A stretch of 64,000 nt of DNA from Deinococcales bacterium (GTDB lineage: Bacteria; Deinococcota; Deinococci; Deinococcales; JAAFIG01): positions 4,842-68,841 of the forward strand of contig JAYWGM010000092.1 in assembly GCA_043778225.1 (NCBI GenBank), read 5' to 3'. Both the position numbers and the translations under genes were made by a program. Numbering within the stretch: the first letter of the stretch is position 1; every line of letters begins with the position of its first letter. Shown here piece by piece: positions 9,921 to 42,531 of this stretch. A model generated the notes under the pieces. That model was given only the letters and a program-made list of their open reading frames with translations, made no database searches and was not told the origin of the DNA.

Positions 9921-10640
9921 TTTCAGCCTATAGATTACCGTCAGTCAGTTGGCAGTACCCAAGATGAAATGCGAATTTTAGCTCGAGCAGGAGCGCCAGA
10001 ATACAGCCTTGTGTTGTCCGAAACACAAACGGCTGGGCGTGGGCGGCGTGGCAAAGTCTGGCAAGCTGCGCCTTATTCTGGCTTGTATTTTACCTTGCTG
10101 CTGCGCCCAGATTTGAACTTTGCCGCTTTTGCTTTACTGCCGCTTTTGATTGGGGCTTGTGTTGCCAAAAGTATCAACCTCGAGACTGGAATCAGCACGA
10201 TGCTAAAATGGAGCAACGATATTTTGAGTGCTGATGCTCGAAAATTTGCTGGTATTTTACTCGAGTCTGAATTGAGCCAAAAAAAAAGAATTGCTCTGGT
10301 TGGCATTGGTATCAATGTGCGAAACCAGGACTTTCCAGCCGAATTTAAGGCGGCGGCTTTAGAAGAATTTGCACCAGTTCATCGGCGTAATTTGCTGACC
10401 CAAATTCTACAAACCATCCAAGCTGAGTATCCACTTTTTCTCGAGCAACCAAGTCATGCAATAACTTTTTGGAAAGCCCAACCCAACTTTTTAGGGCAAG
10501 CTGTTCAGATTCTCGAGCCAAACGGTACGGTCAGCACAGGCATTGCCCAAGACCTCGACTCGAGTGGAGGTTTAATTATACAAACAGCCACTGGCTCGAG
10601 GCTACTTTATGCTGGGGAAGTTAGTTTGAAACGCGGTTAA
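9876..10640 (+). CDS. birA: biotin--[acetyl-CoA-carboxylase] ligase (no N-terminal HTH)
   Basis: 'TQTAGRGRRGKVWQAAP' is the biotin ligase GRGRxGR motif, and 'KWSNDI' is also present. The start overlaps the tsaE stop. Confidence 0.85.
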   Translation: MIDELHSPVIDELHSFQPIDYRQSVGSTQDEMRILARAGAPEYSLVLSETQTAGRGRRGKVWQAAPYSGLYFTLLLRPDLNFAAFALLPLLIGACVAKSINLETGISTMLKWSNDILSADARKFAGILLESELSQKKRIALVGIGINVRNQDFPAEFKAAALEEFAPVHRRNLLTQILQTIQAEYPLFLEQPSHAITFWKAQPNFLGQAVQILEPNGTVSTGIAQDLDSSGGLIIQTATGSRLLYAGEVSLKRG

Positions 10641-31768: not shown

Positions 31769-35238
<3,470 letters not shown>

Positions 35239-35242
<4 letters not shown>

Positions 35243-35523
35243 GTCAAATTAAATTGGATGTCAAAGTTGTCCTAAATGATCAACATTGGGTTCAAGCTCC
35301 AAATGGCGATGTCTTGTACATGATGAATGTTAAAACGGGCAAATACTTGTACCTGAACGAAGTTGCCACTGAAATTTGGCGGCATATTAAAACCCCAATT
35401 ACGGTTCAAGAAATCTGCTTAAAACTCGAGGCGGCTTTTGATGTGGATGCAGCCCAGTGCCAAAATGAAGTGATTGGTTTTTTGAATAAACTCAAGCAAG
35501 AAGGCAATCTCGAGATTTGCTAA
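35239..35523 (+). CDS. PqqD-family lasso peptide chaperone (B1 / RRE)
   Basis: 94 aa; 'YMMNVKTGKYLYLNEVATEIWRHIKTPITVQEICLKLEAAFDVD...VIGFLNKLKQEGNL' is the PqqD/RRE pattern. Confidence 0.85.
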
Positions 35524-37446
35524 ATGAGTGGAATTTACGGGGTGGTGCGTTTTGATGGTAAACCCATTAACCAAGACTTGGCTGCCATGCAAGCGGCAAT
35601 GGCGCATTGGGGAATGGACGGGCATAGACACTGGCTGGATGACTCAGTGGCATTTGGACAGGCATTACTAAAAACCACGCCAGAAGCCAGTTTTGAACAG
35701 TTACCAAGGTTGGTCTGTGGTGGGACGGCTGTTTTAACGGCGGCGGCTCGGCTTGATAATCGGGTTGAATTAGCCAAAGAATTGGGTTTAGACCTAAGTC
35801 AACAAGTTATTACCGCCGATGGAACTTTGGTGGCACTGTCTTTTGAAAAATGGGGTCAGGATTGCGTGCATCGGTTGCTTGGCGATTGGGCTTTTGCGGT
35901 TTGGAATAAGAATCAGCGCAGTCTTTTTTTGGCTCGAGACCATTTTGGGAACACTGGACTGCATTTTTGTTTGTGGCAGGATGGTTTTGCTTTTTCTTCA
36001 GGCATTGAAGGGATTCTTGCACTAGAGGATGTTCAGCCAAAAATCAATCAGCCACGAATTGTTGCGTTGCTGACTTTGGCAGTAGAAGATAGCTCGAGTA
36101 CCTATTACGAAAATATTTTCCGCTTAGAAACAGCCCATAGCCTAACTTTGCAAAATCAGAAACTGCATTTTAAACGGTACTGGAAACTCGAGGAAACACC
36201 GCAACTTAAATTGGGTTCAGATGCCGAGTATGTTGAAGCATTTGTCTCCATTTACAAAACAGCCGTCCATGACCGAATGCGCTCGAGTCGTCCAATTGCC
36301 AGTACCCTTTCGGCTGGGCTGGATTCTGGGGCGGTCACGGCATTTGCCGCCGAGTTGTTGCGTGGGCGCGGTCAAGAACTGACCGCGTTTACTTCTGTGC
36401 CAGTGTACCCAACCTTTGATTTGGTGCAACGTGGAATTGCCAATGAATGGGATTTGGCGCATCAGTCGGCACAATGGATTGGCAATGTCAAACACATGGC
36501 TTTACCTGCCGATAATTGGACACCACTGGCTGGTATTCGGCAAGCAACAAAAATTCTGCAAGAACCCGAATTTGCGACTGGCAACAGTTACTGGATTCAA
36601 GCCTTGTTATCAGAACTTCGTCAGCAAGGTTTTGGGGTTTTACTGACAGGGCAGTGCGGAAACTTAGCCGCTTCTTGGGAAGGTGGTATGTACCGTACTT
36701 GGTCGGCTTTGCGTCAAGGTCAGCTTGGGTTAGTGTTTGGGCAGTTGCGTTCTGGGGCAATACAACGCCATTCTTGGACTCGAGCCGTGCTGGGTGAAAT
36801 TGCCAAACCCGCTTTTTTATCGCTTCAAGCCCATTGGCTACAATTGACTCGAGCGCCACAAAAACCGTATTGGACTAAACATTCGGTGATTTCACCAATT
36901 CTGGTGCATCAACTTAAACTTCTCGAGCCAAGCCAATATAAATTTAGTATTTCAGAGCAACCTTTTTTGTATTCGGTTAAGCAGCAATTACGGCAAGTTG
37001 TTTCTATTCCGACTCGACTAGGGGCGACTTGGCACACCATGGGAGCAGGCTATGGACTCGAGGTGCGTGACCCAACGATGGACAAACGCTTACTCGAATT
37101 TTGTTTTTCAATTCCGCTAGGGCAGTTTTCTGGCGCGGGTCATGACCGTTGGCTGATGCGTCGGGCTGTGCAGGGTCTATTACCGCCAGCCGTACAATGG
37201 AACACCAAGCGTGGTCAGCAAGGAAAAGACATTGGGCAACGGCTTTTGGCTTCTCGAGATGAGGTCGAAGAATTGCTGGAGCGTTTAAGCTCGAGTCAGA
37301 GTACAAGGTATTTGAATGTTCATAAAGTAAAAAATGCTTGGATTCGTTTGCAGCAAGAACAAGTCAATCCCGCTCAGGAAGACGGAATTATGATTTTGGG
37401 GGCTTTGGGTTTGGGGTTGTTTTTAGAACAGGCAGAGATACGATAA
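35524..37446 (+). CDS. asparagine synthetase-like lasso peptide cyclase (C)
   Basis: N-terminus 'MSGIYGVV' (Ntn-like but lacking Cys2) and the PP-loop 'STLSAGLDSGAVTA'. 640 aa. Confidence 0.85.
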   Translation: MSGIYGVVRFDGKPINQDLAAMQAAMAHWGMDGHRHWLDDSVAFGQALLKTTPEASFEQLPRLVCGGTAVLTAAARLDNRVELAKELGLDLSQQVITADGTLVALSFEKWGQDCVHRLLGDWAFAVWNKNQRSLFLARDHFGNTGLHFCLWQDGFAFSSGIEGILALEDVQPKINQPRIVALLTLAVEDSSSTYYENIFRLETAHSLTLQNQKLHFKRYWKLEETPQLKLGSDAEYVEAFVSIYKTAVHDRMRSSRPIASTLSAGLDSGAVTAFAAELLRGRGQELTAFTSVPVYPTFDLVQRGIANEWDLAHQSAQWIGNVKHMALPADNWTPLAGIRQATKILQEPEFATGNSYWIQALLSELRQQGFGVLLTGQCGNLAASWEGGMYRTWSALRQGQLGLVFGQLRSGAIQRHSWTRAVLGEIAKPAFLSLQAHWLQLTRAPQKPYWTKHSVISPILVHQLKLLEPSQYKFSISEQPFLYSVKQQLRQVVSIPTRLGATWHTMGAGYGLEVRDPTMDKRLLEFCFSIPLGQFSGAGHDRWLMRRAVQGLLPPAVQWNTKRGQQGKDIGQRLLASRDEVEELLERLSSSQSTRYLNVHKVKNAWIRLQQEQVNPAQEDGIMILGALGLGLFLEQAEIR

Positions 37447-37447
37447 A

Positions 37448-37477
37448 TTGCCGTGCCAAAGGTTTTTTGTGTATAAT
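37448..37477 (+). promoter_or_regulatory. dedicated promoter for the precursor gene
   Basis: TTGCCG (37448-37453), an 18-nt spacer, then TATAAT (37472-37477). An AAGGAG SD sits 8 nt before ATG 37502. Confidence 0.55.
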
Positions 37478-37501: not shown

Positions 37502-37666
37502 ATGGAAAAAATTCAATCTGAGCAAGTAGAAATGCAAACAGAAGTTCTGACCCGTAAAGTGTGGGTAGCCCCGCAATTGGAAACGATTGAATTTTTAGAC
37601 ACAAGTCTGGCGATAAACCCCGGTGGAGTTTTTGATGCCATTTATAGTGCGAGTAGGTCATTTTAA
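37502..37666 (+). CDS. lasso peptide precursor (54 aa)
   Basis: MEKIQSEQVEMQTEVLTRKVWVAPQLETIEFLDTSLAINPGGVFDAIYSASRSF. The leader has an aromatic-x-x-P-x-L motif (WVAPQL). The putative core AINPGGVFDAIYSASRSF has Ala1 and Asp9. Confidence 0.75.
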   Translation: MEKIQSEQVEMQTEVLTRKVWVAPQLETIEFLDTSLAINPGGVFDAIYSASRSF

Positions 37667-37725
37667 CCATATCAATTGCTCTAAAAGTAGTATTGCTTTT
37701 AACTTTGTAACACAACTCAATTACG

Positions 37726-37753
37726 GCGGCTAAAGACCACAGTCGCTTTTTTT
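37726..37753 (+). terminator. weak (attenuating?) terminator after the precursor gene
   Basis: 5-bp stem GCGGC/GTCGC (one G-U pair) followed by T7. Confidence 0.35.
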
Positions 37754-37774
37754 GTTGACCTAAACTCTCGATTT

Positions 37775-38908
37775 ATGACTTACAAAATAAATTCCCACAC
37801 CCAATTTTTGAGAAGCCAACAAGTTTTGATGACTCAAAACACCAATAACATTGAGCTTCGGCATACTGTTTTTCAGACTTCTTGCCACATCAACCAAGTC
37901 GGGTATTCTGTTTGGCAACTTCTCGAGCAACCCCAAACCCTCGAGATGCTTGGTTCGCAGCTTGTCCACCAATACGATGTCAGTCCAGAAATTGCCAGCC
38001 GCACCCTAGAAAATCTGCTCGATCAATTGCATGGCTTGGGCTTTATAGGTGTGCAGTATGCAAATTTGCCCCCAGACCCAATGCGTCAACGGTATTTGGA
38101 ATTACTCCAAAAAGCCTTGATGAATTTGTTGTACCCCGAACATGAATTGCGAATTCGGCATTTGCTGATTGCCGAAAAACCAGCCAGTTCACTCGAGACA
38201 GACAGGTTTCTGCGTGATATTCGCAGCACACAACCAGAACAGTACGCCGAAGTTATGGCATCCAAACAAGTCGGTGGGGTGCTGTACAACGAAGTCACTC
38301 GGTATTCACACACCGCCATTGGGATTCGTCGCTTAGAGAATCTGCAAGCCTGTGCCGAAGCGGTCTTTGCCGATGGTATCAAAGGCGATTTTCTCGAGGC
38401 TGGAGTCTGCCAAGGTGGAGCATCTATTTTTATGCGGGCGTTGCAAGTGGCGTATGGGCAAGCCGAACGTCTCATGTGGGTGGCGGATTCATTTGCGGGT
38501 TTACCCGTGCCAACAGCCGACTTGGATGTGCAAAGTCAACTTGATTGGTCTGAACCTCGGCAACCGTGGTTGGCAATGAGTCTCGAGACGGTACAAGAAC
38601 ATTTTCGACGTTACGATATGCTGAGTGGTTCGGTACATTTTTTACAAGGTTGGTTTGCCGATACACTGCCTACAGCCCCGATTCAAAAACTGGCTATTTT
38701 GCGTCTCGATGCCGATTTATACAGTTCGACCACCGATATTTTAGAAGCCTTGTATAATCGGGTCTCGGCTGGTGGTTTTATTATCGTGGATGATTACGCG
38801 GGTATTAAAGCCTGCCGAGAAGCCGTGGATAACTTTAGAACCAAAAATAGTATTCTCGAGCCAATTCGCTCTGTGGATTGGAGTTGTGTCTACTGGCGTA
38901 AAGCCTAG
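37775..38908 (+). CDS. PqqD/RRE-like domain fused to a TylF (macrocin O-methyltransferase)-family methyltransferase
   Basis: The N-terminal 'HINQVGYSVWQLLEQPQTLEMLGSQLVHQYDVSPEIASRTLENLLDQLHGLGFI' is PqqD-like. The C-terminal 'GDFLEAGVCQGGASIFM', 'WVADSFAGLP' and 'LRLDADLYSSTTDILEALYNRVSAGGFIIVDDY' are TylF-family motifs. Confidence 0.75.
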   Translation: MTYKINSHTQFLRSQQVLMTQNTNNIELRHTVFQTSCHINQVGYSVWQLLEQPQTLEMLGSQLVHQYDVSPEIASRTLENLLDQLHGLGFIGVQYANLPPDPMRQRYLELLQKALMNLLYPEHELRIRHLLIAEKPASSLETDRFLRDIRSTQPEQYAEVMASKQVGGVLYNEVTRYSHTAIGIRRLENLQACAEAVFADGIKGDFLEAGVCQGGASIFMRALQVAYGQAERLMWVADSFAGLPVPTADLDVQSQLDWSEPRQPWLAMSLETVQEHFRRYDMLSGSVHFLQGWFADTLPTAPIQKLAILRLDADLYSSTTDILEALYNRVSAGGFIIVDDYAGIKACREAVDNFRTKNSILEPIRSVDWSCVYWRKA

Positions 38909-41385: not shown

Positions 41386-42531
41386 ATGACCTTAACCGAA
41401 GACCAACGAGCGATTCTCGAGACAGTGACTGATTTTTGCAAAAAAGAAATTGCACCACTTGCGGCTCAGTACGATAGAAACAGTGAATTTCCGTGGGTGC
41501 AACTAAATAAATTAGGCGAAATTGGTTTGCTTGGTGCAACTGTGCCAGAAGCCTACGGTGGCTCTGGTTTGGATGCCGTGACTTACGCACTTTGTCTCGA
41601 GCAAATTTGTAAAGCCGATGCTAGTGTGGGCGTGATTGTCAGTGTCACCAACGGGCTACCGCAGCAAATGCTTTTGAATCATGGTACTGAAGCCCAAAAA
41701 CAGCGTTGGCTCGTGCCATTGGCTCGAGGGCAAAAAATTGGCGCGTTTTGTCTGACCGAAGCCAATAGCGGCTCGGATGCTGCCAGCTTACGAAGTCGTG
41801 CCACCCAAGAAGGTAACGACTGGATTCTCGAGGGGCAAAAGGTTTGGATTACCTCTGGCGGACAAGCCCAGACCTATTTGGTTATGGTGCGAACCAACGA
41901 TGAACGCGGCTCGAGAGGGATTAGCTGCTTTGTTCTCGAAAAAGGTATGGCGGGTTTATCTTTTGGTAAACCCGAAGAGAAAATGGGGCTTCATGCAGCC
42001 CATACCACCACGGTCAATATGGATGCGGTAAGAGTCTCGAGCGACCACATGATTGGTACTGAAGGACAAGGGCTGATTATTGCTTTATCCAGCCTTGACG
42101 GCGGAAGAATTGGTATTGCGATGCAAGCCATTGGCATTGCCCAAGCGGCTTTTGAAGCTGCCAGAGATTACGCTTTTGCCCGTGAGCAATTTGGCTCGAG
42201 ACTGTCCGAGTTTGAAGGGATTAGTTTCAAGATTGCGGACATGGCGACCCGAATTCACGCCTCGAGACTGCTGGCTTTGGATGCCGCCAGTCTAAAAGAA
42301 GCTGGTAAACCCTACAGCAAAGAAGCCAGCATGGCAAAATTATTTGCCTCAGAAACCGCCAATTTTGTAGCCAAAGAAGCGATTCAGATTTTTGGTGGCA
42401 ACGGCTACAGCCGAGAATACCCAGTCGAGCGCCATTACCGCGATGCAAAAATCACCGAGATTTACGAAGGCACATCTGAAATTCAGCGCCTTGTTATCTC
42501 GAGACAAGTGTTTAAGGACTCGAGACAATAA
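41386..42531 (+). CDS. acyl-CoA dehydrogenase (short-chain type)
   Basis: 'CLTEANSGSDAASL' and 'QIFGGNGYSREYPVERHYRDAKITEIYEGTSEIQRLVI' are ACAD signatures. It has its own TGTATAAT box (41372-41379) 6 nt before the ATG. Confidence 0.9.
   Translation: MTLTEDQRAILETVTDFCKKEIAPLAAQYDRNSEFPWVQLNKLGEIGLLGATVPEAYGGSGLDAVTYALCLEQICKADASVGVIVSVTNGLPQQMLLNHGTEAQKQRWLVPLARGQKIGAFCLTEANSGSDAASLRSRATQEGNDWILEGQKVWITSGGQAQTYLVMVRTNDERGSRGISCFVLEKGMAGLSFGKPEEKMGLHAAHTTTVNMDAVRVSSDHMIGTEGQGLIIALSSLDGGRIGIAMQAIGIAQAAFEAARDYAFAREQFGSRLSEFEGISFKIADMATRIHASRLLALDAASLKEAGKPYSKEASMAKLFASETANFVAKEAIQIFGGNGYSREYPVERHYRDAKITEIYEGTSEIQRLVISRQVFKDSRQ

Follow-up and report, generated by a model that had tools for sequence, protein, structure and literature searches.

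A TylF-family methyltransferase fused to a RiPP recognition element in lasso peptide gene clusters with a probable role in phosphorylation, glycosylation and methylation of the peptide

The window analyzed here is a stretch of 64,000 nucleotides from a Deinococcales bacterium (contig JAYWGM010000092.1, positions 4,842 to 68,841 of the forward strand). It holds a gene for a 377-residue protein that joins an N-terminal recognition element of peptides made on the ribosome and modified post-translationally (RiPP recognition element, RRE) to a methyltransferase domain of the TylF family. Its neighbors are the genes of a predicted lasso peptide pathway, followed by a putative glycosyltransferase and a putative kinase (Table 1). 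The fusion belongs to a widespread and unstudied group of lasso clusters that probably decorate their peptide with phosphate, sugar and methyl groups.

The fusion protein and its gene cluster

Profile searches with the Pfam models PqqD (PF05402) and TylF (PF05711) placed both parts of the protein above their cut-offs. The PqqD match covers residues 38–91 (E = 2e-10, 41.3 bits, cut-off 23.4), and the NCBIfam lasso PqqD models match the same domain weakly, under their strict cut-offs. A profile was made from the first 100 residues in 24 diverse relatives, every one of which (24/24) passes the PF05402 cut-off, and was run against the PDB sequences; it retrieved a ‘lasso peptide biosynthesis PqqD family chaperone’ (9x90_B, 4.8e-11), the solved lasso B1 proteins TbiB1 (5v1u, 1.7e-10) and TfuB1 (6jx3, 3.6e-8), and PqqD (3g2b, 9e-6). 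In an AlphaFold2 model computed from an alignment of 54 relatives (pLDDT 92.5, pTM 0.92; pLDDT about 90 in the RRE region), predicted strands at residues 9–13, 17–21, 26–30, and 36–39 precede helices at 41–49, 56–67, and 71–87, i.e., the modelled layout is that of the RRE winged helix, a three-stranded antiparallel sheet and then three helices. By these matches, the N-terminal domain is a lasso-B1-type RRE, which would be expected to bind a leader peptide. The database gene call for the protein (P0001) begins at Met19 and is 359 residues long; because P0002 and P0003 conserve residues 1–18, which the model shows as a β-strand, the longer start at 37775 is favored.

The remainder of the protein matches TylF over residues 105–376 (E = 1.2e-82, 277.6 bits, cut-off 23), and in Pfam at E up to 1 it matches only the TylF and Methyltransf_24 families. 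Against PDB sequences, phmmer ranked first SpnH, the rhamnosyl 4'-O-methyltransferase of spinosyn (4cdz/4ce0/5i10; E = 8e-63, query residues 176–376), followed by MycF (about 1e-56) and NovP (3e-54). Foldseek, given the AlphaFold2 model, returned NovP, MycF, SpnH, and then CalS11, with E-values of 1e-24 to 1e-20 and TMt of 0.86–0.96 for the first three and an identity to SpnH of about 47% in the alignment; as modelled, the domain is a class I Rossmann methyltransferase fold like that of NovP, MycF, and SpnH. All of these closest solved relatives (SpnH, MycF, NovP, and CalS11) are O-methyltransferases of deoxysugar hydroxyls.

The motifs LRLDADLY and VDDY of the fusion align with LRLDGDLY and IDDY of SpnH, respectively; D312 and D314 (LRLDADLY) and D339 (VDDY) do not vary among the 54 relatives, where D340 also reaches a conservation of at least 90%. 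We take these acidic residues to be the metal and catalytic site, as in NovP and MycF. Because the acidic motifs are aligned with those of SpnH and conserved, the enzyme looks catalytically competent, and its sequence assigns the C-terminal domain to the metal-dependent, S-adenosylmethionine (SAM)-dependent O-methyltransferases of the TylF family. The segment from the first helix to the Rossmann core is ~28 residues longer than in SpnH (query 123–175 vs. SpnH 24–48).

A first-pass annotation of this DNA, made from its letters, had proposed an N-terminal PqqD/RRE domain, TylF-family sequence in the remainder, and that this RRE is the second one. The searches and models above bear out the first two proposals, and the third is upheld by a discrete B1 gene whose product matches PqqD with 67 bits. 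The identity between this B1 and the fusion RRE is 21% over 52 residues, and the latter is the second predicted RRE of the cluster.

The cluster is co-directional, in the order B2, B1, C, precursor, RRE-methyltransferase, GT-B/helical-repeat glycosyltransferase, and HprK-like kinase. B1, B2, C, and a precursor all lie between 34784 and 37666; the precursor carries a leader motif as well as an acidic ring acceptor, and the genes are, as predicted from their sequences, a lasso peptide biosynthetic cluster.

Table 1. Features of the putative lasso peptide cluster in the window
Feature	Position	Strand	Evidence or remark
Lasso leader peptidase B2 (transglutaminase-like; Cys protease)	34784..35242	+	PF13471 70.7 bits; NCBIfam lasso_biosyn_B2 85 bits, cut-off 33
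Discrete RRE / B1 (PqqD family), first RRE of the cluster	35239..35523	+	PF05402 67.2 bits; groups with B1s of related clusters
Lasso cyclase C (asparagine-synthetase-like)	35524..37446	+	PF00733, GATase_7; NCBIfam lass_lactam_cya E 1e-119, below its cut-off
Promoter-like site (TTGCCG, 18 nt, TATAAT) upstream of the precursor	37448..37477	+	10/12 consensus matches; consensus match only
Putative precursor peptide A, 54 aa: MEKIQSEQVEMQTEVLTRKVWVAPQLETIEFLDTSLAINPGGVFDAIYSASRSF	37502..37666	+	Homologous small open reading frames adjoin the fusion gene in >20 related loci
RRE-TylF fusion protein, 377 aa	37775..38908	+	Open reading frame, Pfam, PDB sequence search, AlphaFold2 model, Foldseek
RRE (PqqD-type) domain, residues about 6–95	37790..38059	+	Pfam; profile matches to TbiB1/TfuB1/PqqD; β3-α3 in AlphaFold2 model
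TylF-family SAM O-methyltransferase domain, residues about 102–377	38078..38905	+	PF05711, phmmer, Foldseek, conserved motifs
Predicted GT-B-fold (GT4-like) glycosyltransferase with C-terminal helical-repeat domain, 505 aa	38911..40428	+	AlphaFold2, Foldseek, weak Pfam match, conserved adjacency to the fusion
Putative HprK-like lasso kinase, 317 aa	40425..41378	+	Hpr_kinase_C E 1e-5, 25 bits; TIGR04352 E 5e-8; orthologue length

The window holds a single match to a precursor gene (37502–37666) and no further one. Small open reading frames at more than 20 loci share with it a leader motif, W-x-x-P-x-[I/L]-x-E-[V/I/L]-D-..-T, and a core with one invariant Asp, then x-G-x-Y, and a Ser or Thr at or near the C-terminus; the leader motif and the D-x-G-x-Y-[ST] tail are kept across phyla. 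The relatives end in YS, YAS, YGS, YTV, or YSST, and the window precursor in YSASRSF. The leader W and the conserved T are 13 residues apart, and canonical lasso precursors have a spacing of 15 between Y(-17) and T(-2) (PMC10368454). The leader cleavage site and the ring size (7 to 10) are ambiguous: the ring would have 9 or 10 members with T at -2, 8 or 9 with T at -3, and 7 or 8 with W at -17, and none of these assumptions is favored. Some cores leave five residues after the ring Asp (e.g., ..DFGIYS), unusually short for a threaded tail.

Directly after the fusion comes the gene for a 505-residue protein with a weak Pfam match to Glyco_trans_1_2 (E = 6e-4) and no match among PDB sequences, its GT-B fold being seen through structure prediction only. 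The AlphaFold2 model (pLDDT 92) retrieved PimA, BshA, MshA, and tetrahydrobiopterin glucosyltransferase in Foldseek, with probability 1.0 and TMt of 0.6–0.7, and by this model the protein is a GT4-like GT-B glycosyltransferase with two Rossmann-like domains. The ATG of the kinase gene overlaps the glycosyltransferase stop codon, and the kinase, at 317 residues, is comparable in length to orthologues of 317–327 residues at loci L082, L084, and L085.

Some smaller features of the cluster and its surroundings are recorded here. An AAGGAGA Shine-Dalgarno sequence lies between the promoter-like site and the precursor gene, and no clear Shine-Dalgarno sequence precedes the ATG of the fusion at 37775. 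The 108-nt gap between precursor and fusion (37667–37774) contains GCGGC..GC followed by a run of T, at about 37727–37756, and could be an attenuator that sets the ratio of precursor to enzyme. An acyl-CoA dehydrogenase gene stands directly after the tailoring genes in the window (41386–42531) and at the acidobacterial locus L085 (14812–15993, there on the opposite strand); this adjacency may be a coincidence or may mark an unrecognized cluster member. Upstream, the open reading frame for IMP dehydrogenase (32097–34787, 896 residues) has an in-frame insert at about 33114–34244, between GIGPG and SICTTR, whose LAGLIDADG-type motifs (FLGDGH, VDSDGF) make it look like an intein.

Relatives, gene context and history of the fusion

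Relatives of the fusion at E ≤ 0.001 numbered 2,237 in a database search, and of the 120 listed nearly all have PF05402 together with PF05711; their source annotations read ‘PqqD family peptide modification chaperone’ or ‘O-methyltransferase’. Named hosts include metagenome-assembled genomes of Deinococcales, Acidobacteriota (Terriglobus, Thermoanaerobaculia), Longimicrobium, and Pigmentiphaga humi. In Longimicrobium and an acidobacterium, the cyclase gene C, with B1/B2 beside it, is followed, in this order, by a small open reading frame, the RRE-methyltransferase, a protein of roughly 525 residues, and an HprK-like kinase; an NTP_transf_5 gene comes after, with a fused GT2 in the acidobacterium.

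We scored 166 TylF-containing loci with hidden Markov models built from the cluster proteins of the window. The RRE-TylF fusion was present at 33 of them, and the other 133 were scored as ‘unfused’; some loci are the same contig taken from two collections, so that the independent fused cases number nearer 26. Among the 33 fused loci, a kinase was found at 24, a cyclase at 24, and the GT-B/helical-repeat gene at 25, and all fused loci accompany kinase or lasso genes where the flank is long enough. Four fused loci without the GT-B gene (L091, L094, L104, and L109) have a GT2 gene directly downstream (PF00535, E = 1e-31 to 1e-35), and at the remaining four (L095, L097, L100, and L101) the contig ends within 500 nt of the fusion gene. 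A glycosyltransferase, of one or the other of two unrelated folds, thus stands beside the fusion at every locus where the sequence allows it to be seen. Because the GT-B enzyme is exchanged for a non-orthologous GT2, the methyltransferase appears tied to glycosylation as such.

Lasso or kinase genes occur at only four of the 133 ‘unfused’ loci, each of them an artefact: the contig start truncates L106 and L110, which nest in the fused clade, and at L136 and L138 a frameshift splits the RRE from the methyltransferase. The association of the fusion with such clusters is exclusive. Truly unfused TylF relatives are instead joined to GT2, GT41 with tetratricopeptide repeats (TPR), sulfotransferase, or other methyltransferase domains, partners that are glycan-modifying contexts.

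Individual loci depart from the common arrangement in several ways. At L008, L073, and L126, unfused TylF domains are part of large fusions with GT41 and TPR, two GT2 domains, or a sulfotransferase and a second methyltransferase, and these proteins look like multi-domain glycan-capping enzymes. L084 (P. humi UWPJ01000025, 8667–13967) has B1, the RRE-methyltransferase, two small precursor-like open reading frames, the GT-B/helical-repeat gene, the kinase, and an extra class I methyltransferase, with no cyclase or B2 in this module; a cyclase and B2 pair and a second cyclase are on other P. humi contigs (L168). The metagenome loci L102 and L103 likewise have no cyclase within the flank. At L094 (4703–14212), B1 and C are separated by a radical SAM gene and the RRE-methyltransferase is followed by three tandem GT2 genes, which suggests multiple glycosylations; a precursor-like open reading frame there (about 10151–10369) overlaps the second GT2 reading frame at its start. 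At L101 (1807–5987), an extra CMAS-type methyltransferase, a short-chain dehydrogenase, and an Old-Yellow-Enzyme-type oxidoreductase lie between the kinase and B1.

In a tree of the methyltransferase domain, 30 fused rows together with the truncated L106 and L110 form one clade (SH-aLRT 99), whose sister is an unfused cyanobacterial enzyme. A single branch, with support of 96/95, divides the RREs fused to the methyltransferase from the discrete B1s found in the same clusters. Because of the single methyltransferase clade and of this split, the fusion is old and of single origin rather than a recent copy of the local B1, and the trees place its origin at one event, long ago. An approximately unbiased (AU) test had come out against monophyly of the fused methyltransferases, an artefact of labelling the contig-truncated L106 and L110 as unfused; the clade is clean once they are included. 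The possibility that the second RRE is a recent duplicate of the cluster's own B1 was ruled out by the well-supported split between the two across all clusters.

The ratio of non-synonymous to synonymous substitution rates (dN/dS) of the RRE part is 0.48 against L002 and 0.27 against L003, with 0.12 and 0.16, respectively, for the catalytic part, values that indicate purifying selection on the RRE, looser than that on the catalytic domain. Of 301 sampled genomes from the phylum of the window, 2 carry the fusion gene, and four genomes of the same genus all lack it; the cluster is accessory and patchily distributed there.

Proposed order of tailoring and the methyl acceptor

The conserved set of RRE-methyltransferase, glycosyltransferase, and HprK-type kinase points to three tailoring enzymes that act together on the tail of the linear precursor. 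In the reading that we prefer, and that we regard as moderately probable, the RRE holds the leader, and the TylF domain O-methylates a sugar previously placed on the precursor tail by the neighboring glycosyltransferase. That the RRE-methyltransferase acts in a leader-dependent way is a reasonable expectation from the RRE, a conserved domain of the B1 type under purifying selection; the shared leader motif and the dN/dS below 1 would lend leader binding indirect support. The close solved relatives methylate sugar hydroxyls, and at no informative locus is a glycosyltransferase missing; the likelier acceptor is therefore a sugar borne by the peptide.

The reaction can be rationalized into four steps. 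First, by analogy with the paeninodin-type enzymes, the kinase would phosphorylate a Ser or Thr near the C-terminus of the linear precursor. Lasso HprK-like kinases phosphorylate linear precursors, accelerated by B1, and in pseudomycoidin hexoses are carried on the phospho-Ser (PMC9266682, PMC10368454). Second, the GT-B/helical-repeat enzyme would attach a sugar to that phosphate or else, within the D-x-G-x-Y-S/T tail, to the invariant Tyr or to the Ser/Thr. Third, the fusion RRE would grip the leader motif (W-x-x-P-x-I/L ... T) and its tethered TylF domain would O-methylate a hydroxyl of the attached sugar. Finally, B1 and B2 would cut off the leader and C would close the ring.

Several points weigh against this reading. 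The glycosyltransferase call consists of a predicted fold and a weak Pfam match; the kinase falls under both its Pfam cut-off (25 bits vs. 33.3) and its NCBIfam cut-off; and genes for the biosynthesis of nucleoside diphosphate (NDP)-sugars are absent from the window cluster. The Ser of the Deinococcales precursors is penultimate (..RSF) and not C-terminal as in paeninodin, whereas Ser is the last residue in many relatives. Evolution of the RRE is three to four times faster than that of the catalytic domain, and another vicinal-diol or hydroxyl substrate might in principle be accepted by a TylF-type active site.

A rival reading has the peptide itself as the acceptor in a leader-dependent methylation, as the first-pass annotation proposed. 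The methyl group would go to a carboxylate or to the hydroxyl of a side chain (the invariant Tyr, or Ser/Thr), independently of the glycosyltransferase. An RRE fusion points to a peptide substrate, the tail offers an invariant Tyr with Ser/Thr nearby, and the ~28 residues gained relative to SpnH mean that the substrate pocket may be remodelled. Such a reaction would not, however, explain why a glycosyltransferase of one fold or the other so strictly accompanies the fusion, the close characterized relatives all use sugar hydroxyls, and no TylF-family peptide methyltransferase was found in the literature searched. With close solved relatives acting on sugar hydroxyls and a glycosyltransferase at every informative locus, that proposal is probably wrong, and we consider direct methylation of the peptide unlikely.

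The faster evolution of the RRE bears on a different reading, namely that this domain does not deliver the substrate, being either vestigial or a docking or chaperone domain for the kinase, the glycosyltransferase, or B2, with the TylF domain acting on the mature, leaderless, glycosylated lasso peptide. The cluster already has a discrete B1, vestigial RREs are known (RRE-Finder preprint), and some tailoring, including iterative glycosylation by IgtG, takes place on the mature lasso (PMC11912497, PMC13352647). Set against this, Pfam cut-offs are passed in all 24 of the diverse members, the domain has been retained since a single ancient fusion and has a dN/dS below 1, and AlphaFold2 gives a confident relative placement of the two domains (pTM 0.92), so that we hold a non-delivering RRE to be improbable.

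Least credible, and very improbable in our judgement, is that the TylF domain methylates the kinase-installed phospho-Ser (or polyphosphate) to a phosphate methyl ester: we know of no TylF-family member that methylates phosphate, and the obligatory glycosyltransferase would be left without a partner role, even though kinase and glycosyltransferase accompany the fusion equally faithfully and phosphate oxygens could be bound by a metal-dependent site. Polyphosphorylation by lasso kinases is reported, and a cap could limit it (PMC9266682), but phosphorylation alone does not require the fusion, because the paeninodin and bsf clusters have a kinase without it (PMC9266682, PMC10368454).

Extending the preferred reading, methylation of a precursor-borne sugar, to the family as a whole gives a wider proposal that we put forward tentatively, as somewhat less than an even chance. 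The RRE would aim the enzyme at the glycan carried by the precursor, and not at the peptide, throughout a family of more than 2,000 members in several phyla that would make phospho-, glyco-, and O-methyl-decorated lasso peptides. A short tail, sometimes of five residues after the ring Asp, may need a bulky methylated sugar or phosphate as a steric plug. Because B1, the RRE-methyltransferase, the glycosyltransferase, the kinase, and the precursor sit apart from a cyclase in P. humi and at L102/L103, a portable tail-capping module is hinted at for non-lasso peptides too.

Novelty and comparison with known systems

The RRE-TylF fusion and its module were not described in the literature searched, although a passing mention in the paeninodin or RODEO papers is possible. 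The domain families and the idea of an RRE fusion are already known, and it is this fusion and this module that appear new to that literature. Lasso peptides are prized as stable scaffolds, and each new tailoring reaction widens what they can yield; the modifications at hand include methylation of the C-terminal carboxylate, methylation of Asp leading to aspartimide, and glycosylation, the last described only recently. If the proposal is true, leader-guided methylation of a peptide-linked sugar would be a new reaction type for lasso peptides, as well as a new use of the RRE, which would steer an enzyme toward a second-layer modification. For genome mining and heterologous expression, a handle is offered by the conserved module and the motifs of the precursors.

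The catalytic domain is of the same PF05711 family and fold as SpnH, MycF/MycE, NovP, CalS11, and TylF, with which it shares the D-x-D and D-D motifs. Those enzymes are single-domain proteins acting on glycosylated polyketides, aminocoumarins, or NDP-sugars, whereas the fusion has an N-terminal RRE, a RiPP cluster, and a presumed glycopeptide substrate, and its lid region is ~28 residues longer than in the SpnH-type enzymes. Similarly, the fusion RRE follows the same predicted order of strands and then three helices as the lasso B1 RREs (TbiB1, 5V1U/5V1V; TfuB1, 6JX3) and PqqD. B1 RREs, however, stand alone or are fused to the B2 peptidase, while the RRE of the window is fused to a tailoring enzyme and belongs to a clade separate from the B1s of the same clusters.

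At the level of the cluster, the closest parallels are paeninodin (PadeK), ThcoK/SyanK, BsfK, and pseudomycoidin (PsmK/PsmN), which, like the window cluster with its putative kinase, have an HprK-like kinase in a split-B cluster and a precursor with Ser or Thr at or near the C-terminus. Tailoring of the paeninodin/pseudomycoidin type acts on the linear precursor with B1 assisting, and those clusters have neither an RRE-TylF methyltransferase nor a GT-B/helical-repeat glycosyltransferase. The fusion relatives at L082 and L085 carry an NTP_transf_5 gene like PsmN, whereas the window cluster lacks both NTP_transf_5 and an ABC exporter, and the aromatic-to-Thr spacing in its precursor leader is 13, compared with the canonical 15.

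Other SAM-dependent tailoring enzymes of lasso peptides are StspM and LasF, the lassomycin-type C-terminal carboxyl methyltransferases, and TceM and LihM, but these belong to methyltransferase families other than TylF and have no fused RRE. For StspM, whose substrate is likewise the linear precursor, mitomycin 7-O-methyltransferase served as the basis of the model, and TceM and LihM, homologues of the isoaspartyl methyltransferase PIMT, make the aspartimide in cellulonodin-2 and lihuanodin (PMC9266682). By Pfam, the window methyltransferase is of neither the mitomycin-7-O-methyltransferase-like nor the isoaspartyl-methyltransferase family (families per PMC9266682). The first-pass annotation's contention that methylation here would be distinct from that known in lasso peptides therefore holds in so far as the putative tailoring enzyme is of another methyltransferase family; its description of the lassomycin-type enzyme as isoaspartyl-methyltransferase-like was imprecise, given the modelling of StspM.

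The RRE-glycosyltransferase fusions listed by RRE-Finder follow the same principle, with an RRE in cis to a modifying enzyme. The RRE-Finder preprint set aside 1,050 retrieved methyltransferases as presumed false positives; unlike these, the window protein has what its profile matches and model indicate to be a genuine RRE, in the genomic context of a RiPP.

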